Origin: an uncultured Eubacterium sp. | Lineage (GTDB): Bacteria; Bacillota; Clostridia; Lachnospirales; Lachnospiraceae | NCBI GenBank assembly: GCA_964436595.1 | Contig: CAYTDI010000006.1 | Span: 16,474-80,473 of the forward strand | Length of the DNA: 64,000 bases | Reading direction: 5' to 3' | Part shown: positions 15,743 through 62,747 of the stretch, one piece after another | Layout of the letters: each line of letters opens with the position of its first letter | How positions within the stretch are numbered: position 1 is the stretch's first letter | The notes under the pieces: generated by a model | Database searches by the model: none | Told to the model about the DNA's origin: nothing | What the model saw: only the letters and a program-made list of their open reading frames with translations | Position numbers and translations under genes: made by a program

Positions 15743-17428
15743 TTACTCCATTTTGAAACCGGAAGTAATTTCATTTAACTGTTTGGATAACTCTTCACAT
15801 TCTTTTGTCATCTCATAAAGATTCTCTGTGTAATTTACCACTTCTGTGGTCTTTCCGGCAATATCTGATACTCCTTCTGCGGATTCATTGATTGTAGTAT
15901 TGATTCCGCCAATTGCTTCGGTGATAACATTGATTCCTTTTTCCAATTCTTCTGCTTCTTTTTCAGCTTCTAACATAAAGTTCTGAATATGTTCTGCTGC
16001 TTCTTTATATTCTTTTCCAGATGTAAGGAAATCACTGTAATCCTTTGTTACTTCATTTCCAAGGAATTCCAATGTCTGTTTCAAACAATCCATCAACGTC
16101 TGCACTGACTCGTTTACCTGATTTACAATATCAATAATTCCGGTTGCCGTACTAGAGCTTTGTTCTGCCAATTTTCCGATTTGATCTGCAACAACTGCAA
16201 ATCCTCTTCCGTTTTCACCTGCTCTTGCCGCTTCAATAGATGCATTCAAGGATAACAAGGTTGTCTCCTCAGCAATTTCCTGAATAGTTCCTGTCAATTC
16301 ATTAATCTTGTCTACGGCAGATGCTTTCTCTATTGCATCCTTTGACACCTTACGAATTGCATCATACATTTCCAGCGTATTCTTATTGGCTTTTTCACTC
16401 TGGTTTGCCAACATTTCTGATTTTTCCATAATATCAGTTGTCATCTGTGCTCCCTCTTTAATCTTTCCGGTTACATTGATGACATTTTCCTGCATATCTG
16501 CAATACTCTCATTAATAGATTCTGATGACGCAGAGGTTTCTTCCATTCCTGCTGCTAATTCTTCCGTAGTTGCTGAGTTATCTGTAGATGCCATATTGAC
16601 CTCTTTAGATATCTCACTTAACTCTTCCGAACTATGTAATAATTTCTCAGAAATATTACTTAATTTTGCCACAATCGCTGCCAGCTTGCTTTTCATATCA
16701 ATAATTGCAACGCCCATATTAGCAATTTCGTCTTTGGTTTTTGGCATTTTTTCCTGTGTAGATAAATCAAATTCGGAAATAGAATGAATTACTTTTGTCA
16801 ATGGTTTAATCGGTCTTGTAATAACTGAAGTAATAAGATATCCAATCAAAATAATAACTGCTACCAAAATAACTCCAACTATCATACAATACATATTCAT
16901 TGTATTAACCGGTTCCATTACCTCAGACTTATCTGCCTGTACGAATAATACCCAGTTATTTACCGTACACATAAATGCAACATACTTTTCTTCTCCATCT
17001 ACGGTACACTCACGCACATCAGCTGTTGTAATTACACCCTCTGCATTTAACGTATCCAATACTCCCTGTACAACACTATTTCCTTCAATCGTAGTTCCGA
17101 TTTTACTACGGTCTTTGGAATACAGATATGTTCCGTCTGTATCAACCAAACACGCCTCACTTGACTTCATTCCGTCAATACCAACACTATTCAGAATAAA
17201 TTCCAAACGCACAGACATATCGATTCTTTCTGTATCACCCCAGAAGCTTTCATATAATGTATCTGATGCTGATGTACAAACATCATACAAGTAATTCTCA
17301 CAAAGTGAAACTACATTTTTCTCACTTACCATTCTTGAAGCTAATAAAATCCCTGCTATCAGCAGAATGGAAGTGGAAATCATCATAACGGATACTTTTC
17401 CCTTTATGGTTCCAAATATTTTCTTCAT
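15743..17428 (-). CDS. Methyl-accepting chemotaxis protein with an extracytoplasmic Cache-like sensor
   Basis: 561 aa. Layout is TM, ~160-aa ectodomain, TM, HAMP, then the MA signalling domain (EETTLLSLNASIEAARAGENGRGFAVVADQIGKLAEQS). Confidence 0.9.
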   Translation of the reverse strand: MKKIFGTIKGKVSVMMISTSILLIAGILLASRMVSEKNVVSLCENYLYDVCTSASDTLYESFWGDTERIDMSVRLEFILNSVGIDGMKSSEACLVDTDGTYLYSKDRSKIGTTIEGNSVVQGVLDTLNAEGVITTADVRECTVDGEEKYVAFMCTVNNWVLFVQADKSEVMEPVNTMNMYCMIVGVILVAVIILIGYLITSVITRPIKPLTKVIHSISEFDLSTQEKMPKTKDEIANMGVAIIDMKSKLAAIVAKLSNISEKLLHSSEELSEISKEVNMASTDNSATTEELAAGMEETSASSESINESIADMQENVINVTGKIKEGAQMTTDIMEKSEMLANQSEKANKNTLEMYDAIRKVSKDAIEKASAVDKINELTGTIQEIAEETTLLSLNASIEAARAGENGRGFAVVADQIGKLAEQSSSTATGIIDIVNQVNESVQTLMDCLKQTLEFLGNEVTKDYSDFLTSGKEYKEAAEHIQNFMLEAEKEAEELEKGINVITEAIGGINTTINESAEGVSDIAGKTTEVVNYTENLYEMTKECEELSKQLNEITSGFKME

Positions 17429-17458
17429 CGTTTTCGCTCCAATCTTCTAATAAACAGA

Positions 17459-18772
17459 CTATTTTTGTTCTTTCCACTGTGTCTTTACATCACTTACTAC
17501 TTCTTCCCAAGTCATTTCACCCTTTACATAACTTAAAAGATCTGCTCCGAACTGGTCTTTAAAAAGCTGTCCCGGAAATGCTGTAAAGTTCCATGCTACA
17601 CTCTGTTTACTTTCATCAGACATTGCCGCAATTACTTGCTGTGCCAATGGGTCAGTTGGCTTTTCATCATCATCAAAAGTATCAAACGGTGCAATAAATC
17701 CAAGCTTATTAGTTACATAATCCTTTCCTATATCAGAAGTAAACAGCCATTCAATAAAATCAAGGGTTGCTTTCTGATCTTCCTCAGATGCCCAGCTACT
17801 TACACTAAAGTAGTTTTCTGTACCAATACAGATACCCTGACTTTCCTCGCCATCCATTCCGATGTAAATTGGCAGGAATTTTACATCATCCTCACCAACT
17901 ACATTTCCATCAATTGCTTCAATCTGACTCCATGCCCAGTTACCATTCTGTACCATGGCTACTTTTCCCTGTGCAAATTCCTCCATGGAATTACTTACGG
18001 TTTTAGAACCTAACTCCATTTTATCCGTACAAGAATTATTTACATATAGTTCAAATATATCTTTAAAATTATCCGCATATGTAAAATCAATTTCATCCAA
18101 ATCATTTACCTCTTTATCATTAAATTCATAATAAATCGGTAAATTCATAAGATGTGTCTGCCATCTCCAGTCCTCTCCTGAGCTCAAAGAGGTAGACGCA
18201 AATACACCTTCAATTCCCAACTGTTCTTTATGAGCAGTCATGTCTTCTGCCACTGCTTTTAACAACTCATAACTGTTAATTTCTTCTGCGGAAGAAATAG
18301 AAACTGCCTTATCCGGTAATGCAAAATACTTTTTCATAATGCTATCATTGTAAATAATTCCATATCCTTCTACTACATACGGAATACCATACACGCCACC
18401 ATCAGACTCTACCGCAAGACTTTTATCCAACAAATGATCATATAAATCTGTATCCTTTAAGTCCAAACAAAACGCTGACCAATTTTCATACCCGATTGGT
18501 CCATTAATTTGAAAAAGAGTTGGTGCCTCTCTTTTGGCAATTTCAGACTGTAAAACCTGTTCATATGTTCCACTTGCTGCCGTAGTTACCCTTACCTCAA
18601 CTCCCGTTTCCTTTGTATAGGTCTCTGCAATTTCTTCCCATACTTCTGCTACTTCTGGCTTAAAATTCAGGTAGTATACACTTCCCGTTTCCTTTTTGGA
18701 ACTTGCACATCCCGTCAAGGCAAACGCCAATAATAACAATACTGCAATAACTCCTATTCTGTTTTTTTTCAT
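17459..18772 (-). CDS. ABC-type carbohydrate solute-binding lipoprotein (family 1), with no permease or ATPase genes nearby
   Basis: 437 aa. Lipobox LTGCASS. Typical SBP_bac_1-like sequence. Confidence 0.85.
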   Translation of the reverse strand: MKKNRIGVIAVLLLLAFALTGCASSKKETGSVYYLNFKPEVAEVWEEIAETYTKETGVEVRVTTAASGTYEQVLQSEIAKREAPTLFQINGPIGYENWSAFCLDLKDTDLYDHLLDKSLAVESDGGVYGIPYVVEGYGIIYNDSIMKKYFALPDKAVSISSAEEINSYELLKAVAEDMTAHKEQLGIEGVFASTSLSSGEDWRWQTHLMNLPIYYEFNDKEVNDLDEIDFTYADNFKDIFELYVNNSCTDKMELGSKTVSNSMEEFAQGKVAMVQNGNWAWSQIEAIDGNVVGEDDVKFLPIYIGMDGEESQGICIGTENYFSVSSWASEEDQKATLDFIEWLFTSDIGKDYVTNKLGFIAPFDTFDDDEKPTDPLAQQVIAAMSDESKQSVAWNFTAFPGQLFKDQFGADLLSYVKGEMTWEEVVSDVKTQWKEQK

Positions 18773-22491: not shown

Positions 22492-23031
22492 TCATATTAA
22501 TTCTGTAATTCGTTTCTCAATTACATTAACAGACACACTAAAATATTTTGATAGCATACTGACTATCTCGCCATCAGTTTCGAACACTCGTTTTAGTTGC
22601 TCATACCTTTTCATAAAACTGTCCTTGGGCACAAGTAAATTCATTGCAAAAGCATCAGCTTCCCACTCAAGTGCACCGTGTTCTCTGCCACAATCTCTGT
22701 GAGCATACAGCCCACTTAGACCTTTTTCTTTAAAGTGTAACACATAATGTCCAAGCTCGCGTGCAATGATAAACCGTTTCCACTCTAAAGACATCTTGGA
22801 GTTTACACCAAGTAATTTATCGGTCGAAACCCCTAGCACGTCCTCGGCGCCTTCTTCAACAACGATAAATCCATTATCTTCTTCGTTAAGAACTGCATTG
22901 CCAACCACAAATCCTAGTCCCTTTGCAATGCCAATTACATCAACCGGACAATCATTGACAGAATACTGTGCTGCGTTCACAATATCTTGTACACTTCTTT
23001 CAATTTTAACAGTGTTCATATTCATCCCCAT
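22492..23031 (-). CDS. ImmA/IrrE-family (DUF955) metallopeptidase-like protein with a degenerate HEXXH motif
   Basis: 179 aa. FIIARELGHYVLH plus EWEADAFAMNLLVP matches the ImmA/IrrE pattern, but the first His is Arg (codon CGC at 22759-22761). The start codon is uncertain because three ATGs lie within 5 codons. Confidence 0.7.
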   Translation of the reverse strand: MGMNMNTVKIERSVQDIVNAAQYSVNDCPVDVIGIAKGLGFVVGNAVLNEEDNGFIVVEEGAEDVLGVSTDKLLGVNSKMSLEWKRFIIARELGHYVLHFKEKGLSGLYAHRDCGREHGALEWEADAFAMNLLVPKDSFMKRYEQLKRVFETDGEIVSMLSKYFSVSVNVIEKRITELI

Positions 23032-23067
23032 AAAAATACCGTGGAGAAAAACTCCACGGCAATGATT

Positions 23068-23838
23068 CTAATTCCACTGAATACCACTTATCATATCTTG
23101 CCATGTCCAAGAAGGGTTCCAGCCTTCTGGAACACTGGAGGCACTTCCGCATCCTCCACCCCATAAACCGTAAGGAAAACTTGTACCATAGTCAACACCC
23201 TTCCAGATATTGTGCTCTACACCATCAATCATAATAGTGTAACCATCATAATCAATAAAGTCATTCCCATTGTTAATGATTTTGTAATTGGTAACGCCAC
23301 ACACTCTCAGATCGTCCTCCAAAGTCCAAGCTTTTGGCTGCTCTGGAGCTGGGGCAATTTCATCATCTGGTAAAGAATCATCACTCTGAGTGTTACTTGG
23401 AGTACTGGTAGTACTCGGTGTAGTACTAGCAGCTGGAGCAGGACTCGGACTCTTACCCTGTGTTGGAGTTGTAGATTGGCTTGGAGTTGTGTTCGTGGTT
23501 GCAGACTGTGACTGTGTTCCAGCTGTCTGCGCACTATTCTTCTCAGAAGTGGTCTTTTGTTTTCCACTGGTTGAAGATTCACTCTTCGCATTAGTTACAA
23601 CTTCTTCAACTTCACCACTCTCTTCACTCTCAGTTTCCTGTACCTCTGCGTTATCCTTGACAGATTCTTCAGTTTTGCTATCTGCTTTTGCAACAACTTT
23701 AGAATCTTTCTTACTCTCACTCTTTTCTACCTTCTTACTCTCAGCAGACTGCTCTGTTTTTACAGACTCTTTTGTACTTCCGCAAGCAGTAACACTAAAG
23801 GTCAATGCAAGTAAAGTAATAACAACTAATTTCTTCAT
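23068..23838 (-). CDS. Lipoprotein with a long Ser/Thr/Glu/Lys-rich linker and a Trp/Gly-rich C-terminal domain
   Basis: 256 aa. Lipobox VTACGS. GGAGG RBS. Has its own terminator hairpin at 23039-23059. Confidence 0.75.
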   Translation of the reverse strand: MKKLVVITLLALTFSVTACGSTKESVKTEQSAESKKVEKSESKKDSKVVAKADSKTEESVKDNAEVQETESEESGEVEEVVTNAKSESSTSGKQKTTSEKNSAQTAGTQSQSATTNTTPSQSTTPTQGKSPSPAPAASTTPSTTSTPSNTQSDDSLPDDEIAPAPEQPKAWTLEDDLRVCGVTNYKIINNGNDFIDYDGYTIMIDGVEHNIWKGVDYGTSFPYGLWGGGCGSASSVPEGWNPSWTWQDMISGIQWN

Positions 23839-23985
23839 AACTAACTACCTCCTGTTTCTCTCGTTCTTTCACTATATCGTGATTTCATCACTCAATAATT
23901 TCGCCGTTCGTCAAGAGCGAGCAAGCTCTCTCTGACTCTCTTACGCTCATTATATCATAAAATACTAATAATGATTAAAGGGTTT

Positions 23986-24741
23986 TCAAAAATCGCAAAA
24001 CTCTTTTTTAAAAACATCCAGCAAATACAATGCTGCTTGCTTTCCTCTACCATCAGGCTGTGCCTGTAAACGTTCTCTTGCAACTGAATATTCAATTTTT
24101 AAAGGATTTCTTATGCATGAAAACTGTATATCAAAACTACCCGAAAATGGTTTAGCCACACACTTATTCAAACACTCCTCTAAATTCAGCCAAGGTTCAA
24201 ATTTTTGATAGTTACTAAAGAATGCATCCCCATTATCAAAAATAGGTGCATTTCTGTATCCATTCTTTGTACGGATAACAGCCATGTTATTGAAATGTCT
24301 ATCACCATTACGCGTGATGTAATCTAAGGACAAGCAAGTGTCTACATAATCCTCAACACACAAACCAGTGTATTGCTGAATAGTGTACTTTACAAAATCA
24401 ATACGCTCACAAATATCATTCATCAATAAAATCTCATTTGTTAAAGACTTTCCTGTATTCTGATAATACACTCTTTCAAACGTTACTAGCTGTTCCTCCG
24501 CATTTAGAAAATTTTCTGAATAACAACCAGTGCGACCATTAATGATACAACGATGATACTTAACAAAATCATGATAATTTGAAGATTCTAAAAAAATGCA
24601 TGCTAACACCTCAGAATCACTTTCATAACCACAAGTATCTATCTTAAACCATTTATTTTCGTACTTGTACTTCAGTTGGCTACCTTGACTTCCACTGGAA
24701 GCATTTTCAAAAAAGGACTCATCTAAATTAAACTCTTCCAT
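23986..24741 (-). CDS. HipA-family Ser/Thr kinase core lacking the N-terminal subdomain (HipT-like)
   Basis: 251 aa. Gly-rich loop SSGSQGSQLKY (compare HipA GAQxK). Catalytic-loop-like RNGDRHFNNMAV (compare D-x-H-x-x-N). APIFDNGDAF corresponds to the Mg-binding Asp region. Confidence 0.7.
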   Translation of the reverse strand: MEEFNLDESFFENASSGSQGSQLKYKYENKWFKIDTCGYESDSEVLACIFLESSNYHDFVKYHRCIINGRTGCYSENFLNAEEQLVTFERVYYQNTGKSLTNEILLMNDICERIDFVKYTIQQYTGLCVEDYVDTCLSLDYITRNGDRHFNNMAVIRTKNGYRNAPIFDNGDAFFSNYQKFEPWLNLEECLNKCVAKPFSGSFDIQFSCIRNPLKIEYSVARERLQAQPDGRGKQAALYLLDVFKKEFCDF

Positions 24742-25078
24742 TTAAATCCACATCCTTCCAACACAAATCTTCGCCGGGAAACTTTATCCAAACCTGGTCA
24801 TCATAAGTGAAGCCATGTGAACGTTTTACAATATCGTATGGATTATAGTAATCAAGTCCCATAAGTGCCAATAACTTTTTGGTATCTGGTCTTGTTCGGT
24901 CAAAGCATCTCATTTCCAAAAAAGTAAACATCTGTGCCTTGTCTGGTACAAATCCAAAAATTTGGTATCTCTCGTCTTCCGTTAATCGCTCTGTCTCTAT
25001 AAATTCAGAATCTAAATCTAAAATAACATGCATGATTGGAACATCCCAATTCATGATTGTAAACTCATACTTGTTCAT
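24728..25078 (-). CDS. HipA N-terminal-subdomain-like small protein (HipS-like)
   Basis: 116 aa from the ATG at 25078, which has AAAGGTG 6 nt upstream. The track's GTG start at 25087 is unlikely. FLEMRCFDRTRPDTKKLLALMGLDYYNPYDIVKRSHGFTYDDQVWIKF resembles the HipA_N 'LLPEG..R..la..lGi....f.lL...G.D..Ga' segment. It overlaps the kinase gene by 14 nt. Confidence 0.55.
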   Translation of the reverse strand: MNKYEFTIMNWDVPIMHVILDLDSEFIETERLTEDERYQIFGFVPDKAQMFTFLEMRCFDRTRPDTKKLLALMGLDYYNPYDIVKRSHGFTYDDQVWIKFPGEDLCWKDVDLNGRV

Positions 25079-25152
25079 AAGGTACACCTTTCACATTCCT
25101 AAAACTTTACCTCCAGTGTGGTTTTAGGTAATTAAAACAATATATTCTTATT

Positions 25153-25388: not shown

Positions 25389-28300
25389 CTATGCGTACTT
25401 TTTTCTTTTCATTGTGCCCACGCAAACCACAGTTGCCAATCCTAACAGTAATATATATCCTGCCATATTAGTAGTATCTCCTGTTTTTACCTGTGCACTT
25501 TTCTTTGCCAAATCTGCTCCATTATTTTCGCTTACGATGATGACATAGTCGGATGCATGGCTCAGCTTAAATACTGCGTTTCCATCTGTTCCAACTTTAA
25601 CAGAATCTATGTACTCCAATTTGCCTGTTGTCGGATTATAGTAGTAAAGATTTGCATAGTATCCAACTGCCGCCTGACCAAGAGGAATGATAACGGTTAC
25701 TTCTGCACCAAATTCTCCCTCATATCCTAAAGAGAACTGCATCTGGAATTTTGCCTTATCATCTCCTACTGCACTAATTACACTTTGCGGTATATTATTG
25801 GTATTTAATTCTATGGATAAATCTATGTCTTTTGCCTCTTTGATGTCTTTTCCATTAATTAACCATACCACACCGTTTTCCATTTCAAATCTTAAGGTAA
25901 CATCTTTTCCCTTTGCTGCTTCCATAATATCTTTGGAAACCTTTGTATTTTCCTTTGAAATTGGTACTGTAATCGTTTCTCCATTTTCTGCTTCTGCTAT
26001 TTTTTGCAAAATATCTTTATCACTTGTATCCTGCGGTGGATTTACCGGATTCTGCGGCGTAATCGTTGTTTCTTCTACTAAGGATTTATCTGTAATGATT
26101 AATCCGTTTTTGTCTACTTTTGTTAAATCTGTATCGTTAATCTTTACACCCTTGATTCCGTCAAAGTAAATGGTTGAATCCACATCCCATGTACCGCTAT
26201 GTCCTTCTGGAACAACAGAATTACACCATACGGCAAACTTTGTGATATTACTTGTATTTAAAGTACCACCTTTTTTCCCAACAAAGGAACTGAATGGAAC
26301 TGTTACATACTGTGCTTTCGTTCCCTTTACAAAATCAGTCAAATAAACTTCAAATTCTTCTCCTGAACCATCAGTAAGCTGAACTACCAGCTTTTGTCCG
26401 TTTCCGTCTGGCTGAACCCACATTTCTAATGCATTATATGCAGAAAAATCATTAGCTGTCAAAGAAGATTTGATTCTTCCTGTCCATACTTCATTTCCGG
26501 TTGTAGAAAGTGTATAATGGAATGCACCTCCATATGTTCCATCGTTTTTGTGGTCTGCATCCAGCAAAAATTCTGCGCTGCACCCTGCGGCTGAGTTTTC
26601 TGTATAGCTTGCGTCTAACAAACCATTACTTCCGGAATAAAAATCAAAGTTCTCAATTACATTTACAGGTGCTTTATCTTTTTCTTTTCCTAAACTTATA
26701 TTTTTCAACTGTGCAATCTGCACTCCGTCAGCAACTAATGTAATGGTCGCTACATCGGTAGCTTCTATCTGCTGAATAGTTGTCTGGTCTAATGTGGCAG
26801 TATAGATTGTTGTATCTGCTGCGCTTGGACTTGCCTGCAACACTGCTTTTTTAGCATTTGCTGTATTTTCTACTACAAACTGTACCTCTTTTGCATTTTT
26901 TACAGATGCTTTCAGCTCTGCCTTTTCTAAAATGGTTGCCATTTCAAACGGATAAATCATATAACCGTGAACGTTTGTATATTTCTCATTTGTTACATTT
27001 GATAATGTTCCAATATTATTATAGAAGTTTGTTCCATTTCCAAAAATGGAAGAACTATCATTATAAAAATCAATAAATTCGTTTATCATTTCCTGTCCAT
27101 AGTTGTCATCGTACTTATATGGAACATAGAAATTGGTGTCACTGAAGTTTGCCCATACCAAGAAATATGGCATATTGTTTTTCTTTGCAATTTCATTTAC
27201 TTTTAAATACCAGTTTGTACCGGTTGCTTCTTCTCTCACCGGATTTCCTTTTACCAAAAGTCCTTCGTTATCAGAACCATCTTTTTTCATTACTCTGACA
27301 CCACACTCTGAAATAGAAGCTATTTTTCCTTTTTTCTCAGCCAGACTAGAAACCACTTCACAGGTTTTGTCTAAGCTTTCAAAAAATGAACCATCCGAGG
27401 TTGCCGGATATGTATTGTAGTCATCATAATAATCAAAAGAAAGAATATCTACATATTCATCTCCCGGATATCTGGTTAAAAATTCTTCTTCAGAAGTCAA
27501 TGGTCCGTTTGGTGAATATACATACAACATATTATGTACACCCTGACTTTCCAGATAATCTCTGGTATAGCGATATAAACTCTTATAGGTCTCAATACTA
27601 TTAGTAGAGCCCCACCAGAACCATGAACCGGTATTCTCATGGAGTGGTCGGAAAATAACCGGAATATTATCCTGCTGTAATGCTTTTGCATAGTTTGCTA
27701 CAATATCCAGATATGCATTAAACACCTCGTTATATGCTCCACCCGGAAGAATCTGTTCTGCACAGGTATTGCTTAAATCTTTTGCTTCACCAAAGTCGCA
27801 ATTATAAAAATCATAACTTCCATCTGCATTTTTCTTAATCTTGTCATTTGTAAAGTTTGGCATATGTGTAGATAAGGTAATAATTGCTCCATTCTCTGCT
27901 GCCTTTTTACTATATGCAATAGAGTTTGCCAGAGCAGATGCTGCATCTGTTCCACCTGCCTCTGAACCGGTTAAAGCAAGAGAATCTAATCCGAAAATAC
28001 CACTTACAGAACCGGTTACATCTTCTACATCACCGAGATTAGCACTTGGATTTACAGAACGGCTTACATCGTTCTGATGTCCAAATAATACCTGATTATT
28101 TTCACTTAATGCAGAAAGATAAGTAAATAATGCCTTTGCGCTGTCATCTGCATTTTCATCTGCAATGCGAACAGTATTTTTAGAATAAGTGATATTTGCC
28201 TGTGTCCCTGCTCCCGGTGTAGATGTGATTTTCACAAAATCTTCTGTTGCATTTTTCTGAGATAATGCTAAGTTATCCATATAAATATTACCTTTAAAGC

Positions 28301-29345
28301 TTGTAGACACTCCGATAATTCCAATTGTAATGGATTCTAACGGTGTAGTTGTAGGTGTAAATCCCATGGTAACAGTAACCTTTTTCATTCCGTTTTCTAC
28401 CGTTTCTGCCGTTGACTCATCTACTGCCATATCCTTGTTAATGACACCCTGAGCAAAAAACTTCATTTTTAATCCATCCAGTTCATCCGGATAAATAATA
28501 TCAACACTTATCTGATTATAGTTGCTTACATCTGCCGGTGTTGTTGGTGTGTAAGTTACTTTTGCCTCACTCCAGTCAGTTTTTGCATTTGTAGTATAAT
28601 CTAATGCCACCTGTAATCTCTGATTTGCAACATCATATGCAAGTACCGGAACAGAGTTATCACTTCCGCCATGGAAATACTGATATCCTGTTTCTGTTCC
28701 CCAATTTGCGAAATCACTTTCTGTTGCTAAATCAGATAGTACCGTAGGGTCTTTTTCCTCTATCGTTGGTACATCATTTGTATAATTTGTAACTTTTACA
28801 TTGGAGATAGACAAATCTCCTTTAAATCCTACTCCCACAATTTCAAAATCAATCTCCATTAAGGAGGATGGTGTCTTATCCTTAAATTCTACTTGAATAC
28901 TAGCTGTATAGTTTCCATCGTCTCCCAATGTGAAACTATTCTTATCCAAATATGGCCAGGAATCTCCACTGGTATAAACCCAATCTCCCAGCTTGGTTAC
29001 TCCTTGAAATTTTATATGATTTTCATCTGTTGCAAGAGTTGCGTATGCCTCGGCATTGATTGTAACCTGTGCATCTACGTTAAAATTAGCTGTTACCTTA
29101 CGTTCTGCATCATTGGTGTATGCATACGTTACCGTCTTTTTTACACCCCAATCTTCTTCTGTTAAACCAGAAAAATCAATTCCCTCTGCATTCACACTAG
29201 CACTATTTTCATAAATCACTTCGCTAGATGCTGCTTCTGCCTGCAAAGTACCCATTGAAAACATTTGATTTACAGCTGGCACTTGCGCTACTAAAGCTGC
29301 TGCCATCACCCCTGCCAACAGCCTTTTTAAAAATTTCTTGTGCAT
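25389..29345 (-). CDS. Secreted multimodular glycoside hydrolase family 26 (endo-beta-mannanase) with a C-terminal cell-surface anchoring signal
   Basis: 1318 aa with a signal peptide. GH26 motifs FRPLHENTGSWFWWG, VYSPNG, YVDILSFDYY and ISECG. Flanking beta-sandwich (CBM/Ig-like) regions. The C-terminus VKTGDTTNMAGYILLLGLATVVCVGTMKRKKYA looks like a sortase-type sorting signal. Confidence 0.88.
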   Translation of the reverse strand: MHKKFLKRLLAGVMAAALVAQVPAVNQMFSMGTLQAEAASSEVIYENSASVNAEGIDFSGLTEEDWGVKKTVTYAYTNDAERKVTANFNVDAQVTINAEAYATLATDENHIKFQGVTKLGDWVYTSGDSWPYLDKNSFTLGDDGNYTASIQVEFKDKTPSSLMEIDFEIVGVGFKGDLSISNVKVTNYTNDVPTIEEKDPTVLSDLATESDFANWGTETGYQYFHGGSDNSVPVLAYDVANQRLQVALDYTTNAKTDWSEAKVTYTPTTPADVSNYNQISVDIIYPDELDGLKMKFFAQGVINKDMAVDESTAETVENGMKKVTVTMGFTPTTTPLESITIGIIGVSTSFKGNIYMDNLALSQKNATEDFVKITSTPGAGTQANITYSKNTVRIADENADDSAKALFTYLSALSENNQVLFGHQNDVSRSVNPSANLGDVEDVTGSVSGIFGLDSLALTGSEAGGTDAASALANSIAYSKKAAENGAIITLSTHMPNFTNDKIKKNADGSYDFYNCDFGEAKDLSNTCAEQILPGGAYNEVFNAYLDIVANYAKALQQDNIPVIFRPLHENTGSWFWWGSTNSIETYKSLYRYTRDYLESQGVHNMLYVYSPNGPLTSEEEFLTRYPGDEYVDILSFDYYDDYNTYPATSDGSFFESLDKTCEVVSSLAEKKGKIASISECGVRVMKKDGSDNEGLLVKGNPVREEATGTNWYLKVNEIAKKNNMPYFLVWANFSDTNFYVPYKYDDNYGQEMINEFIDFYNDSSSIFGNGTNFYNNIGTLSNVTNEKYTNVHGYMIYPFEMATILEKAELKASVKNAKEVQFVVENTANAKKAVLQASPSAADTTIYTATLDQTTIQQIEATDVATITLVADGVQIAQLKNISLGKEKDKAPVNVIENFDFYSGSNGLLDASYTENSAAGCSAEFLLDADHKNDGTYGGAFHYTLSTTGNEVWTGRIKSSLTANDFSAYNALEMWVQPDGNGQKLVVQLTDGSGEEFEVYLTDFVKGTKAQYVTVPFSSFVGKKGGTLNTSNITKFAVWCNSVVPEGHSGTWDVDSTIYFDGIKGVKINDTDLTKVDKNGLIITDKSLVEETTITPQNPVNPPQDTSDKDILQKIAEAENGETITVPISKENTKVSKDIMEAAKGKDVTLRFEMENGVVWLINGKDIKEAKDIDLSIELNTNNIPQSVISAVGDDKAKFQMQFSLGYEGEFGAEVTVIIPLGQAAVGYYANLYYYNPTTGKLEYIDSVKVGTDGNAVFKLSHASDYVIIVSENNGADLAKKSAQVKTGDTTNMAGYILLLGLATVVCVGTMKRKKYA

Positions 29346-41536: not shown

Positions 41537-41662
41537 CGTTCTGCTCCTTCTTTCTGTTTGTGCCCTTATGGTATCATAGATTATTTTTCTGTGCAACCGT
41601 CATTCATTGACACTTTATTCCAAATTCACTATAATATTAATATCTTATGGAGGTGAGTGCAG

Positions 41663-42931
41663 ATGGAAACATCAATGATTAATATTACTGACATTATTTG
41701 TCGGGCGTATCACTATGTTGACCCACGTTTAAACAGTCATGGAGAGCGTGTGGCTTATATTCTTATGGAAATGTTTAAGGACAAGTCTCAATTTTCCCCT
41801 CAGGAAAAACAGAATATTTTTATGCTCGGATTACTCCACGACATTGGCGCATATAAGGAAGCTGAAATAGATGCTATGCTTTCTTTTGACCAGAATGATT
41901 CTTTGGATCATTCCGTATTTGGTTATCTTCTTTTTCGGGAATTTTCTCCCTTAAAGGAATATGCAAATGTTATTTTATATCACCATCACAGCAATGCTCA
42001 GTACTATGCTGTTCCTACCAGCGACTATCATCGCAGGCTTGCCCGCATTTTGTATTTAGCCGATAGAATTGACATTTTTTGTCAGTTTAACGACATCCGA
42101 GGTTTATTTCCATTTTTAAAAGAATATGAAGATTCTATTTTTACTTCGGAAGATATTCAATGGTTTCAGCAGACTAATGCCACCTATCATGTTTTAGATG
42201 CATTACATTCTGGAAATTATCGAACTGAACTATTGCACTATATGGAAACTATGGCCTTTTCAGAAGAAGAAATACACGATTTTCTCCTTTTATTTATTTT
42301 TTCCATAGATTTCCGTCATGAATATTCTGCTGTTCATACCGCTTACGCAGTACAAATAAGTCAAATACTTGCAAAGAAGCTTCATTTTTCTTCTACTTCC
42401 TGCAAGATTGCAGAATTATCTGCCTTACTTCATAATATAGGTAAGATTTCTCTTTCTTCTTGTGTGGAAAACGAAAATGACTATGATGTTTATTTAAAAA
42501 ATATTTATAAAAACACTACTCAAGAAATCACAAAAAAAATATTAGCTGGAAATGTATCAGAACAAATACTTGAAACAATACAGCAATCCTTTTCCATCCT
42601 TGAACACTGGGAGCAGGAAAAGCCTTTGAATTTTTCTCCTACACCAGTTGCTGAAGTTGTTGCTTTAGCCTGCCTTTTAAGCAATGTTTTGACCCTTGAA
42701 TCCGATACCCATACCAAACACTCCAGCTCACTAATCTCATTTCTACATAATAAATACCGCCATTGTGCTATGAATGATAAAATCCTTTCTTCCTTGGAGC
42801 AAGAAGAACAGGAAATACTTCACGATGCAAAGACTTCCTGTTCTTCTTTATCAAATACTTATAAAGACATGATGAATGACTATCACTCTCTAAATGTAGT
42901 ACTTCTTCATTACAATCAAAAATATCACTAA
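41663..42931 (+). CDS. Tandem HD-domain protein (HD-GYP-related; second domain degenerate, GYP absent)
   Basis: 422 aa from the ATG at 41663, with GGAGG 9 nt upstream. HD1 is HGERVA...LLHDIGAY. HD2 is HTAYAV...LLHNIGKI. Confidence 0.7.
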   Translation: METSMINITDIICRAYHYVDPRLNSHGERVAYILMEMFKDKSQFSPQEKQNIFMLGLLHDIGAYKEAEIDAMLSFDQNDSLDHSVFGYLLFREFSPLKEYANVILYHHHSNAQYYAVPTSDYHRRLARILYLADRIDIFCQFNDIRGLFPFLKEYEDSIFTSEDIQWFQQTNATYHVLDALHSGNYRTELLHYMETMAFSEEEIHDFLLLFIFSIDFRHEYSAVHTAYAVQISQILAKKLHFSSTSCKIAELSALLHNIGKISLSSCVENENDYDVYLKNIYKNTTQEITKKILAGNVSEQILETIQQSFSILEHWEQEKPLNFSPTPVAEVVALACLLSNVLTLESDTHTKHSSSLISFLHNKYRHCAMNDKILSSLEQEEQEILHDAKTSCSSLSNTYKDMMNDYHSLNVVLLHYNQKYH

Positions 42932-52993: not shown

Positions 52994-53267
52994 AAAAAAG
53001 TCCCTATGTCAGTTTTCAACCAACATAGGGACGAAATATTCCGCGGTACCACCCTGCTTCTTAAGAAACAATTCTTAAACTCTTCATTATTGCGTAACGT
53101 GCACATCTACGTCATATCTTATTCTTACTCTTTTCATTTCAGATATGCAGCTCTGGTGGGAAATTCGATTGCTTTCTTTTCTTAAAAGGACTTCCAGCCG
53201 ATGATCCTCTCTCTCTGCAAGCAGTGTAGCTCTCTACTTAACACCTTCATTGCCTTTTTCACTCATG
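52993..53267 (-). promoter_or_regulatory. T-box riboswitch leader of pheST
   Basis: On the minus strand: the T-box sequence GCAGGGTGGTACCGCGG (53041-53057), the terminator GTCCCTATGT-loop-ACATAGGGAC plus a T7 run (52993-53032), and upstream AGAGA-type Stem I elements. A GAAUUUCC segment contains candidate Phe codons. Confidence 0.8.
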
Positions 53268-56466: not shown

Positions 56467-56770
56467 GTACTCTATTTCTTGTATTCATCCTTCGTACTTC
56501 TACAATTCTTTGGTAACTTGTGCGCAAGCTATCTTTTGTAAAAGCTATGATTCATACATCTCATTTGAATTTACCCCAAAATGCCGTTTCCTGTGATTTT
56601 GACGCCTAGCCTATGCTAGGTGGGTAACCGCAACCGTTCTTCTGTCTTCCGCTGCAAACGACGGCCTGACATCCAATTGGCAATATAGGAATCCCATGAA
56701 CGTAAATGTAGGTTCAAAATAACAGGGTATCGCACATCCCAGGAATCATTTCCGTTTCTTTCTAAAAATG
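56467..56770 (-). ncRNA. Candidate structured leader or ncRNA of unknown class
   Basis: About 300 nt with no ORF of 60 aa or more, visibly GC-richer than the flanking spacers, and containing several local hairpins (for example CCTAGC-N4-GCTAGG). It is bounded by a consensus promoter and the hairpin above. Confidence 0.35.
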
Positions 56771-61027: not shown

Positions 61028-61075
61028 GTTCTCATATATCCTTATCTCTATCTATTACTGACTTTATTATACTAT

Positions 61076-61182
61076 ACTCACTAAGTTCAATCTTCGCACT
61101 AAGCTCGAAAATACCTCTCTAAGTGATTAGGTATTACTCGCACTAACTTCAATCTTCGCCTTTGGCTCGATTTCTCTAAGTG
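61076..61182. repeat. Tandem ~57-bp direct repeat (2 units) in the leader of the two-component operon
   Basis: Minus-strand units are CACTTAGAGAAATCGAGCCAAAGGCGAAGATTGAAGTTAGTGCGAGTA and CACTTAGAGAGGTATTTTCGAGCTTAGTGCGAAGATTGAACTTAGTGAGTA. Both lie downstream of an extended -10 (TGGTATAAT, 61188-61196). Confidence 0.7.
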
Positions 61183-61243: not shown

Positions 61244-61325
61244 AAAGAAAACATTGAAACTTTTAGGCTTTTAGTGTAAAATTAGTATATATAAAATTGA
61301 CTATACTGAAGGAGCGGTGGTTACT

Positions 61326-61697
61326 ATGGAAGATGTAAAAATTTTAATATGTGATGATTCTATTTTAGCACGCAAACAATTAAAAGATATTATTCGTAAA
61401 TGTGGTTATGACACCTTTCTGGAAGCTACCAATGGAGAACAGGCTGTTGCTTTATACAAAGAATCCAAACCACAGTTGGTTTTTTTAGATATTGTTATGC
61501 CGCAAATGGATGGTTTACAGGCGATTCGTGAGATTCGGCAATTTGATCCTGAAGCATATATTATTATTGTTTCTTCCGTTGGTACGCAATCACAGTTAAA
61601 AGCTGCAATTTTGGAAGGTGCACACGACTTTATTCAAAAGCCTTACTCCTCTTCCACCATTATTCAGATTGTAAAACAACGTTTCGAAGGGAGATAG
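61326..61697 (+). CDS. CheY-like single-domain response regulator
   Basis: 123 aa from the ATG at 61326; the GTG at 61317 is too close to the GGAG. Has DD, the phospho-acceptor Asp in FLDIVMP, the conserved Ser/Thr position in VSSVG, and the Lys in IQKP. Confidence 0.85.
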   Translation: MEDVKILICDDSILARKQLKDIIRKCGYDTFLEATNGEQAVALYKESKPQLVFLDIVMPQMDGLQAIREIRQFDPEAYIIIVSSVGTQSQLKAAILEGAHDFIQKPYSSSTIIQIVKQRFEGR

Positions 61698-61700
61698 GTT

Positions 61701-62579
61701 ATGTATACACAATTTTTTGGGAATTTTCTAATCAATAAAGGTATTATCAATACGGAACAACTTATGGAGGCTCTGGAGATTCAATCCTCTACGCACCAGA
61801 AACTTGGTACACTTGCAATTCATGCCGGATATATGACTGCAAATGAGGTAGAAGATGTTTACATTATGCAGACTCATTATGATAAACTTTTCGGTGAATT
61901 GGCAATAAAACTTGGTTATCTTACTCAGACTCAAGTAGATAAACTGTTAGAGCTTCAACTTCCTGATTACATGAAATTGGGACAAGTACTTGTTGAAAAG
62001 GAATGGATATCTAATGTCGATTTAGAAAATTTAGTAGCTGAATATCGTTCTGCCTATGAAATTTATGATTTAAATTTAGTGATTGAACAAAAAGAATTAG
62101 TAGATAAACTTCTTTCTTCTTTTTGTTCTAAGGAAAATATTGAACAGCCAGAACGTATTATTCCGTATCTGACACTCTTTTTCAATAACTTGATTCGCTT
62201 TATTGGAGAAGATTTTACACCTTTAGAAATTATTCCAATACCAGAAGTTCCTACTAATTTCTGTGTTTCTCAGGAAATTACTGGAACTGTATTATCAGCC
62301 TTGGATATGGAACCACAGACTGCCATTGCTTTTGCATGTAAATATGTGGATGAAGATTTTACTGAATTTGATGAATATGTACTTGCTTCAGTAGAAGATT
62401 TCTTAAACCTCCACAATGGATTATATGCTGTAAATATGTCTAATGAGCATTCCATTGAATTGAAGTTAGAACCACCGGTAGTACAAGAGCATACCACGCT
62501 TTCGACAGATTCACCGGCTTATCTTCTTCCAATTATGTATCCTTTCGGACGAATTAATTTTATCATATCTATCTTATAA
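61701..62579 (+). CDS. Protein with four tandem MshEN/T2SSE_N-type 24-residue motifs (29-residue period) and a CheX/CheC-like C-terminal domain
   Basis: 292 aa, starting 4 nt after the CheY gene. The repeats are FFGNFLINKGIINTEQLMEALEIQ / KLGTLAIHAGYMTANEVEDVYIMQ / LFGELAIKLGYLTQTQVDKLLELQ / KLGQVLVEKEWISNVDLENLVAEY, each separated by 5 residues. The C-terminal segment ...VLASVEDFLNLHNGLYAV... resembles the CheX AIGELGNMTAG helix. Confidence 0.6.
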   Translation: MYTQFFGNFLINKGIINTEQLMEALEIQSSTHQKLGTLAIHAGYMTANEVEDVYIMQTHYDKLFGELAIKLGYLTQTQVDKLLELQLPDYMKLGQVLVEKEWISNVDLENLVAEYRSAYEIYDLNLVIEQKELVDKLLSSFCSKENIEQPERIIPYLTLFFNNLIRFIGEDFTPLEIIPIPEVPTNFCVSQEITGTVLSALDMEPQTAIAFACKYVDEDFTEFDEYVLASVEDFLNLHNGLYAVNMSNEHSIELKLEPPVVQEHTTLSTDSPAYLLPIMYPFGRINFIISIL

Positions 62580-62583
62580 GTAT

Positions 62584-62620
62584 CAGACAAAGAGTCCGCA
62601 CGTCGGACTCTTTTGCGTCT
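62584..62620. terminator. Bidirectional intrinsic terminator (CheX-like gene / thrC)
   Basis: CAAAGAGTCCG-N5-CGGACTCTTTG with an outer CAGAC/GTCTG extension. Confidence 0.8.
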
Positions 62621-62747
62621 GTTTAGTATTCCCTTACGACTACTCCTTACGACTAATTTTATTCCCTATGATATACAAAAAAGAATTCCGCCAATTGCGA
62701 AATTCTTTTTTATCATATATCGAACTCTTTGTTCTATATTCTCTTGA

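Follow-up and report, generated by a model that had tools for sequence, protein, structure and literature searches.

Organization of the locus

The 64,000-nucleotide stretch of DNA analyzed here, referred to as the window, belongs to an uncultured Eubacterium sp. of the Lachnospiraceae (assembly GCA_964436595.1, contig CAYTDI010000006.1, positions 16,474 to 80,473 of the forward strand) and carries two adjacent genes that are the subject of this study. The upstream gene encodes a stand-alone CheY-like receiver, and the downstream gene encodes a fusion protein in which two tandem MshEN_N modules, predicted receptors for cyclic diguanylate (c-di-GMP), precede a domain with the fold of CheX, a phosphatase of phosphorylated CheY (CheY-P). 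A two-gene operon of this kind had been proposed in an earlier note made from the sequence of this DNA, and both of its open reading frames (ORFs) are indeed present. The matches by which the receiver, the MshEN modules and the CheX domain are identified below go beyond chance similarity. The positions of the two genes, of the domains and motifs of the fusion protein and of the flanking signals are collected in Table 1.

Table 1. Features of the receiver and fusion genes and of their flanks, in window positions.
Feature	Position	Strand	Basis
CheY-like stand-alone receiver gene, 123 residues (ATG 61326, stop TAG 61695-61697)	61326-61697	+	ORF list
(MshEN_N)2-CheX fusion gene, 292 residues	61701-62579	+	ORF list
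MshEN_N module A, motifs 1 (residues 5-28) and 2 (residues 34-57), 5-residue spacer	61713-61871	+	Best stretch of the NF053729 match (residues 6-53); motif check
MshEN_N module B, motifs 3 (residues 63-86) and 4 (residues 92-115)	61887-62045	+	Profile match, motif check, duplication
Helical linker, about residues 120-144, from the sensor modules to CheX	62058-62132	+	Model helices 123-126, 128-145, 150-168
CheX-fold domain, about residues 145-292	62133-62576	+	Foldseek; Pfam matches of homologues
Predicted active-site helix A229-S-V-E-D233-F-L-N236-L-H-N-G240	62385-62420	+	Profile alignment to B. burgdorferi CheX E96/N99
P258-P259, Pro of the N-x22-P signature	62472-62477	+	Aligned with B. burgdorferi CheX PP
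Shine-Dalgarno-like AAGGAG 5' of the receiver ATG	61309-61314	+	Read from sequence
Sigma-70-like promoter candidate TTGAAA-17-TAAAAT	61254-61282	+	Consensus scan, 10/12 matches
Perfect 10-bp hairpin (AAAGAGTCCG / CGGACTCTTT, 5-nt loop), likely terminator	62589-62613		Read from sequence

The CheY-like receiver

The receiver matched the Pfam Response_reg model with 100 bits (E 1e-28) and has the full phospho-acceptor set that had been attributed to it, with D10, D11, the phospho-acceptor D55, S83/S84 and K105, as well as the aromatic switch residue F102. Its best match in the PDB was the CheY of T. maritima, with 109 bits (E 1e-30), and the top eight matches were all CheY proteins (97-109 bits). 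The score was 75 bits against B. burgdorferi CheY3, the CheX substrate in structure 3HZH, about 56 bits against Spo0F and at most 56 bits against OmpR-type receivers. The receiver did not reach the cutoff of any curated CheY equivalog model, the best NCBIfam model being CheY_Halo with 97 bits against a cutoff of 200.

Conservation was followed in a set of 148 unique partner receivers taken from related loci. Residues D10, D11, D55, G86, K105 and P106 were invariant amongst them, position 83 was Ser or Thr, and the aromatic switch at position 102 was Phe or Tyr.

The CheX-fold domain and its active site

The full-length AlphaFold model of the fusion protein has a predicted local distance difference test score (pLDDT) of 84, which rises above 90 in the C-terminal domain. 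When this model was compared with known structures by Foldseek, the first 13 matches were all CheX chains (E 9e-10 to 2e-7; template modeling score normalized to the target, TMt, 0.67-0.80; root-mean-square deviation, rmsd, 2.6-4.8 Å). Aligned over about 150 columns, these included 3HM4, 3IIC, 3H4Y, 1XKO, 1SQU, 6VPW and 3HZH_B, and FliY, CheC and the middle domain of FliM followed with lower scores. The CheX-like layout that the earlier note had seen in the C-terminal part of the protein was thereby borne out.

A profile of the C-terminal domain alone matched B. burgdorferi CheX (E 0.0038) and aligned the fusion-protein helix ASVEDFLNLHNG with the catalytic helix ATLTEVGNIIAG, placing 'a-s-l-e-d-f-l-n-l-h-n-G ... 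PP' on 'A-T-L-T-E-V-G-N-I-I-A-G ... PP'. In this alignment D233 takes the place of the catalytic Glu96 and N236 that of Asn99, and P258/P259 coincide with the signature proline. Two readings of the active site had been left open, D-F-L-N or E-x-x-x-N, and only the first, D-x2-N with D233 at the position of the catalytic Glu, was retained. E232 was rejected as the catalytic residue, as both the alignment to B. burgdorferi CheX and the Glu found throughout the family point to position 233.

The site of the window protein, A-x3-D-x2-N-x22-P, was invariant in 42/42 close homologues, with P258 invariant and P259 conserved in at least 90% of them. The wider family was surveyed in 132 full-length representatives, or 133 aligned sequences including the window protein. 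Of the representatives, 98 have Glu and 31 have Asp at the acidic position (129 with either), and 57 have Asp or Ser at the upstream position. The motif of the wider family is D/S-x3-E-x2-N. The Asn at the N236 position is kept in 128 of the 133 aligned sequences. All members at least 45% identical to the window protein are of the Asp type. The roles of these residues in the CheX active site have been described (PMC12887009, PMC3035606); the acidic residue forms a salt bridge to the active-site Lys of the receiver, and CheZ uses an Asp for the same role (PMC3035606). Judging from these alignments, the family as a whole has a canonical CheX site, of which the clade of the window protein carries a conservative Glu-to-Asp variant. 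The earlier note had suggested that the domain could be a binder rather than a phosphatase. Since the wider family keeps the canonical D/S-x3-E-x2-N motif and CheZ relies on Asp, an active phosphatase is the more likely prediction for the fusion protein.

Four positions of the partner receivers (15, 90, 100 and 107; loci L001-L168) split almost fully between those encoded next to Asp-type and those encoded next to Glu-type CheX domains, for example Q90 versus N/H/K. This split could reflect co-adaptation or plain clade history. Covariation between receiver and CheX was rejected as a sign of compensation, because the two types form separate clades.

Tandem MshEN_N modules

The N-terminal half of the fusion protein matched the NCBIfam model NF053729 ('cyclic di-GMP-binding domain-containing protein, MshE-related', 53 positions) in two stretches, with 84.9 bits against a cutoff of 38, in agreement with the MshEN-like repeats that the earlier note had described there. 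Weaker NCBIfam matches were to the MshEN-bearing NfrB and EpsG models. Searched against the PDB, a profile of the family matched PilF (E 3.8e-6), V. cholerae MshE (5HTL, E 2.5e-4) and also PilB, the match to MshE running from profile positions 61-117 (about residues 61-117 of the window protein) to residues 7-63 of 5HTL.

A position-by-position comparison with the 24-residue motif of Wang et al. 2016 (PMC5013675) located four such motifs, each separated from the next by five residues, which make up two 53-residue MshEN_N units (Table 1). BLASTP aligns the two units with each other as an internal duplication (E 2e-7). In the close homologues, Gly-3 and the hydrophobic residues at motif positions 2, 6, 7, 11, 12 and 17 are kept in 41-42 of 42 sequences, with the exception of position 11 of motif 4 (38/42), and position 21 is kept in 39-42 of 42. 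Motif position 1 is Lys in motif 2, and in motif 3 it is Arg or Lys in 36 of 42 relatives.

The four motifs differ in how they are conserved across the wider family. The inner motifs 2 and 3 are canonical across representatives at 25-65% identity (K/R-h-G...G...Q in 103-124 of 133). Gly-3, the hydrophobic positions 2, 17 and 21 and the terminal Gln of these two motifs are kept in 108-124 of 133 sequences, down to 25% identity, the exception being position 21 of motif 2, which is His in 82 of the 133. Motifs 1 and 4, the outer pair, are degenerate at position 1 across the 132 representatives, and motif 4 ends in Tyr or Phe.

The predicted model of residues 1-120 (pLDDT 89, predicted template modeling score 0.76) consists of eight helices, of which those at residues 2-12, 18-28, 35-42 and 47-59 lie in the region of module A. 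Its top PDB match was 5HTL_B, the c-di-GMP-bound MshE of V. cholerae, on which it superposed over 52 columns with an rmsd of 0.7 Å, 27% identity and a probability of 1.00. On c-di-GMP-bound PilF GSPII-B structures it superposed at 0.9-1.1 Å. The Foldseek E-values of this model are not significant (0.12 or higher), because the MshEN_N unit is short. Altogether, the MshEN_N fold and motif architecture is present twice in the fusion protein, and the conservation of motifs and predicted fold makes binding of c-di-GMP by the two modules plausible.

Other assignments of the N-terminal half were rejected. Matches to Pfam FumaraseC_C, DUF4388 and ArsR were all under cutoff and fell on the helical-hairpin repeats, and Foldseek matches of the N-terminal model to fumarases and aspartases had low probability.

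Two shorter representatives of 260-265 residues (P0153 and P0188) retain motifs 1 and 4 and have a low-complexity stretch in place of motifs 2 and 3, which suggests that they are one-module variants that arose when the inner pair of repeats was lost.

Between the sensor modules and the CheX domain the model contains a helical linker, whose helices run to about residue 168 and so overlap the start of the CheX domain. Residues conserved in this region are Y115, E120, Y156 and R166-F167.

Family size, pairing and gene neighborhood

The fusion protein belongs to a large family, with more than 1,035 homologue clusters at 90% identity (E<=0.001) and at least 291 representatives at 50% clustering (E<=1e-30). 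Relatives are encoded in 422 species-level genomes, and the best 80 are nearly all from Lachnospiraceae. Many family members are named 'chemotaxis protein CheX' by NCBI.

A receiver gene lies directly 5' of the fusion gene in 83/83 genome and close loci, with gaps of 2-39 nt. The survey was extended to 85 distant loci at 27-47% identity, consisting of five members on long contigs, amongst them an Oscillospiraceae genome, and 80 metagenome loci; five of the 85 were cut at contig ends. In all 80 assessable distant loci the receiver was adjacent (79 upstream, 1 downstream), including the five on long contigs, whose contexts are unrelated. All ORFs within 5 kb of the pair were clustered in the 85 distant loci, and no other conserved neighbor was found, whether kinase, che, GGDEF or other, as only the receiver recurs. 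The largest other neighbor clusters occur in at most 13 of the 85 loci and have unrelated functions. Because no other neighbor exceeds 13/85, the pairing is a property of the module and not inherited synteny.

In close loci the pair is usually flanked by genes for citrate synthase and thrC. An OmpR/HisKA regulator and kinase pair stands beside the operon in the window; it is a variable insertion that is missing from most loci, and it was rejected as the cognate kinase system of the receiver for that reason. No che or fla genes lie beside the pair in the window or in 168 related loci. Within the window this was determined by Pfam searches of 40 other ORFs, with the remaining flanking genes (citrate synthase, the OmpR-type regulator and thrC) identified from precomputed Pfam calls in syntenic relatives. 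The 40 ORFs are of a housekeeping nature and include V-ATPase, tRNA synthetases, aromatic amino-acid and lipid synthesis and a GH26 enzyme. The sole chemotaxis gene encodes a methyl-accepting chemotaxis protein (MCP) at 15743-17428, about 44 kb from the pair. With housekeeping genes and one MCP as its surroundings, the pair is isolated from any che or fla cluster in the window, as the earlier note had stated.

Two loci deserve separate mention. In one distant locus (L088:126-4994) the order is reversed, the fusion gene preceding the receiver gene, and a GGDEF-EAL gene lies two genes downstream; amongst the loci examined no other has a gene for c-di-GMP turnover in its vicinity. A contig labeled Thermoguttaceae (Planctomycetota; L077, JBQKHF010000019.1) carries a copy with 52% identity to the window protein in a Lachnospiraceae-like citrate-synthase synteny, so the label is probably wrong or the contig a contaminant.

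Relation to known systems

Known c-di-GMP inputs to motility include YcgR, MapZ and Cle-type CheYs, which act on the motor, on CheR, or via c-di-GMP-binding CheY variants. In multi-CheY systems, a phosphate-sink CheY is an extra CheY through which CheA is drained of phosphoryl groups. The module described here resembles these systems in that it may tune chemotaxis output to c-di-GMP or draw phosphoryl groups off CheA. To our knowledge, none of them has a c-di-GMP receptor fused to a response-regulator phosphatase.

The architecture itself is not new, and it belongs to a catalogued and database-named, uncharacterised family. In Suppl. Table 4 and Fig. 3c of Wang et al. 2016 (Nat Commun, PMC5013675), '(MshEN_N)2-CheX' appears as a predicted receptor, with Geobacter lovleyi Glov_2742 (ACD96455) as the example, the range 'Deltaproteobacteria, Firmicutes' and no reference. 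MshEN itself was established experimentally in that work as a high-affinity c-di-GMP receptor. The window protein is collinear with Glov_2742, having two MshEN_N modules and then one CheX domain, and its lineage falls within the published range; this likeness rests on the published N-terminal sequence and the architecture. The published N-terminus has four contiguous motifs with 5-residue spacers (KFFGQFL..., KLGEMAV..., KLGDLLV..., YIGEALV...), and the two proteins share the Phe-Phe-Gly start and the aromatic end of motif 4. They differ in that Glov_2742 is a catalogue line which makes no mention of an obligate CheY partner gene, and the window protein falls in a clade from Lachnospiraceae in which Asp replaces the catalytic Glu.

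Stand-alone CheX proteins (T. maritima 1XKO, B. burgdorferi 3HZH, V. vulnificus 6VPW and V. cholerae CheX) share the fold of the window protein, the single active-site helix with its Asn and the downstream Pro, and presumably a CheY-type substrate. Unlike them, the window protein has an additional N-terminus of about 145 residues with two MshEN_N modules and a linker, an Asp-x2-Asn instead of a Glu-x2-Asn site, and a gene located beside its own CheY and outside che operons. Its identity to these proteins is only 14-21%, with a Pfam score under cutoff. The MshEN domains of the MshE, PilB and PilF ATPases and of NfrB-type glycosyltransferases are built from the same 53-residue unit of two 24-residue motifs, and the c-di-GMP-bound MshE and PilF superpose closely on the window model, as described above. 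Here the output domain is a predicted phosphatase instead of an ATPase or glycosyltransferase, and only the MshEN_N subdomain is present, in two copies, with outer motifs that lack the stacking Arg.

Amongst experimental studies, the nearest are those on separate PilZ proteins with an effect on CheX in Vibrio, namely PlzC in V. cholerae (PNAS 2026, PMC12799141) and PlzD in V. vulnificus (Commun Biol 2026, PMC12887009). As is proposed for the window protein, a c-di-GMP effector in these systems is tied to CheX activity or dosage, to CheY-P and to swimming, although the inhibition of CheX by PlzC was reported to be independent of c-di-GMP (PMC12799141). The effector there is a separate PilZ protein, whereas the predicted MshEN-type receptor of the window protein is fused to CheX.

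Proposed mechanism and alternative explanations

Taken together, we consider, with a probability of about 0.6, that the CheY-type receiver and its dedicated CheX-type phosphatase, carrying two tandem predicted c-di-GMP receptor modules, form an autonomous signaling module modulated by c-di-GMP. Phosphorylation of the receiver would take place on D55, with CheA as the most likely kinase, because the receiver has invariant active-site residues and its closest similarity is to true CheYs; no kinase gene is conserved within 5 kb of the pair in the 85 distant loci. By homology to the CheX-CheY3-BeF3 complex, the CheX domain would dock on the phosphorylated receiver and insert D233 and N236 into its active site, where D233 would pair with K105 in a salt bridge and N236 would position the attacking water. 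Given the conservation of motifs and fold, the two MshEN_N modules may bind up to two c-di-GMP, and binding could change the activity or dimer state of CheX via the helical linker, in a direction that is speculative. The level of phosphorylated partner CheY would then track c-di-GMP, and this CheY might serve as a tunable phosphate sink that competes with the motor CheY for CheA, or might have an output of its own. The MCP encoded in the window supports chemotaxis in the host.

A number of observations weigh against this reading. Full-text literature searches (MshEN/T2SSE_N with CheX; CheX with c-di-GMP) found no functional or biochemical study of (MshEN_N)2-CheX. The earlier note was aware of no described MshEN-CheX fusion, but the architecture is catalogued and family members bear a database name. 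On the sensor side, the guanine-stacking Arg position (motif position 1) is occupied by Phe in motif 1 and in most cases by Leu in motif 4, and the window protein has Leu63 in place of Arg/Lys in motif 3 and Glu101 at the turn-Gly position 10 of motif 4 (Gly in 24/42). Measured against the published relaxed pattern, [RKPN]hGxxhhxx[GAS]hhxxxxhxxxhxx[QNKRYWST], only motif 2 of its four motifs fits exactly; motifs 1 and 3 miss at position 1 and motif 4 at position 10, and all other constrained positions pass. The MshEN homologue XpsE lost c-di-GMP binding through comparable substitutions (PMC5013675) and is a precedent for repeats that no longer bind nucleotide. The MshEN-like repeats might likewise serve only in dimerization or as a scaffold, leaving a dedicated CheY phosphatase that works constitutively, with no c-di-GMP input, and the Foldseek E-values of the N-terminal model would be compatible with this. 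We regard such a constitutive enzyme as unlikely. The preservation of Gly-3, of the guanine-contacting positions 2, 17 and 21 and of the terminal Gln in motifs 2 and 3 would be hard to account for in a mere scaffold, the NCBIfam c-di-GMP motif model scores at more than twice its cutoff, and the model superposes at sub-Å rmsd on ligand-bound MshE. Moreover, substitution of Arg9 in MshE changed the affinity less than 5-fold, as compared with a cost of more than 10-fold for hydrophobic substitutions (PMC5013675).

The remaining difficulties concern the active site and the connection to chemotaxis. The window protein scores 19 bits against Pfam CheX (PF13690), under the gathering threshold of 27, though 35 of 42 homologues match Pfam CheX at E<=0.01 (best 8.7e-7). 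Its clade has Asp in place of the catalytic Glu and Ala in place of the upstream D/S throughout. If these changes had abolished catalysis, the domain would sequester or localize the phosphorylated receiver, possibly in a c-di-GMP-dependent manner, much as CheY-P is bound but not hydrolyzed by FliM, a homologue of the CheC/CheX fold. This is more improbable still than a constitutive phosphatase, as the water-orienting Asn236 is invariant, likewise F234, N239, G240 and the downstream P258, and Asp-type and Glu-type members have the same partner and architecture. The exchange of Glu for Asp is also conservative, with Asp filling the equivalent role in CheZ (PMC3035606). As for chemotaxis, none of the loci seen has the pair within a che operon, so only similarity connects it with CheA and the flagellar motor. 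The phosphoryl group of the receiver might instead come from an unrelated histidine kinase or from acetyl phosphate, and the receiver might control, for example, surface behavior or pili, with CheX resetting it; the housekeeping neighbors, the OmpR/HisKA pair that adjoins the genes in the window and in some relatives, and a HATPase_c gene about 5 kb upstream in 11 distant loci could be read in this way. We give such a role outside flagellar chemotaxis a low probability, similar to that of the constitutive enzyme. Most loci lack the OmpR/kinase pair, which is a variable insertion, the receiver scores 109 bits against true CheYs and at most 56 bits against other receivers, the window encodes an MCP, and named hosts such as Roseburia and Eubacterium sp. 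14-2 are flagellated taxa. In addition, the characterized CheX proteins act on CheY (PMC12799141, PMC12887009).

Flanking signals and other features of the window

The receiver stop codon is separated from the fusion-gene ATG by 3 nt (GTT), and a Shine-Dalgarno-like GGGAG lies 8 nt 5' of that ATG. The receiver ORF has an alternative in-frame GTG start at 61317. The promoter candidate sits in the 298-nt divergent intergenic region and is weak, since the region contains 13 such sites against 9.3 expected by chance, with no enrichment over shuffled sequence. Downstream, the hairpin of Table 1 separates the fusion gene from the convergent thrC and is likely a terminator; the consensus scan also reported a weaker stem at 62604-62621 that overlaps it. 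From the 3-nt gap, the one promoter-like site, the one downstream hairpin and the universal adjacency of the two genes, we infer that they are co-transcribed. A search of the operon leader against Rfam gave no match at E<=1, c-di-GMP riboswitches included. The divergent intergenic region, which separates the genes for the OmpR-type regulator and the CheY, also contains two 39-nt direct repeats at 61070-61170 that may be regulator binding sites; they are 77% identical and spaced by 62 nt, with the core CACTAA[G/C]TTCAATCTTCGC.

Several other features of the window touch on signaling. The MCP gene and the adjoining gene for an extracellular solute-binding protein (15743-18772, minus strand) are its only chemotaxis-related genes. 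A 424-residue HD/HDIG protein (41657-42931, plus strand) matches the HD-GYP part of a NosR-family c-di-GMP phosphodiesterase model with 39 bits, far under cutoff, and may be a c-di-GMP hydrolase. A 339-residue protein (4310-5329, minus strand) has an N-terminal receiver domain only, its other roughly 220 residues having no family match.

Elsewhere on the minus strand, a Peptidase_M78/IrrE-like gene is followed by ORFs of 256, 251 and 119 residues that have no Pfam match (22492-25087). In the 256-residue ORF only a lipoprotein-like N-terminus was recognized, and the group may be a mobile or prophage remnant. A 1,318-residue multidomain glycoside hydrolase with GH26, CBM27 and CBM11 domains and a mannanase-like appearance is encoded at 25389-29345 (minus strand). 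Two RNA features were also found on this strand, a T-box leader 5' of pheS/pheT (53024-53259, 120 bits) and a 6S RNA gene (56569-56748, 65 bits).

Implications

c-di-GMP is known to reach chemotaxis through PilZ proteins or through c-di-GMP-binding CheY variants. How it enters chemotaxis is an active question, with two papers from 2026 tying PilZ effectors to CheX in Vibrio. A family such as CheY/(MshEN_N)2-CheX would be the most direct link possible, as the receptor and the CheY-P phosphatase would reside in one polypeptide and the substrate would be encoded next door. To the existing catalogue entry this analysis adds the strict pairing with a dedicated CheY-like receiver in the absence of any other conserved neighbor, the clade with an Asp-type active site, and the distinction between canonical inner and degenerate outer motifs.

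More tentatively, and with less confidence than in the c-di-GMP-modulated module as such, the pair might act as a self-contained phosphate sink tuned by c-di-GMP. In flagellated gut Clostridia and Geobacter-like bacteria, c-di-GMP would switch the phosphatase that empties a decoy CheY and would thus set the flux of phosphoryl groups from CheA to the flagellar motor. If so, direct gating by a cyclic dinucleotide would be shown for a response-regulator phosphatase for the first time. The family is abundant, especially in flagellated gut Lachnospiraceae, whose motility and flagellins matter for the interaction with the host, and it offers, in abundant gut Clostridia, a clean candidate for a response-regulator phosphatase under direct control by c-di-GMP.

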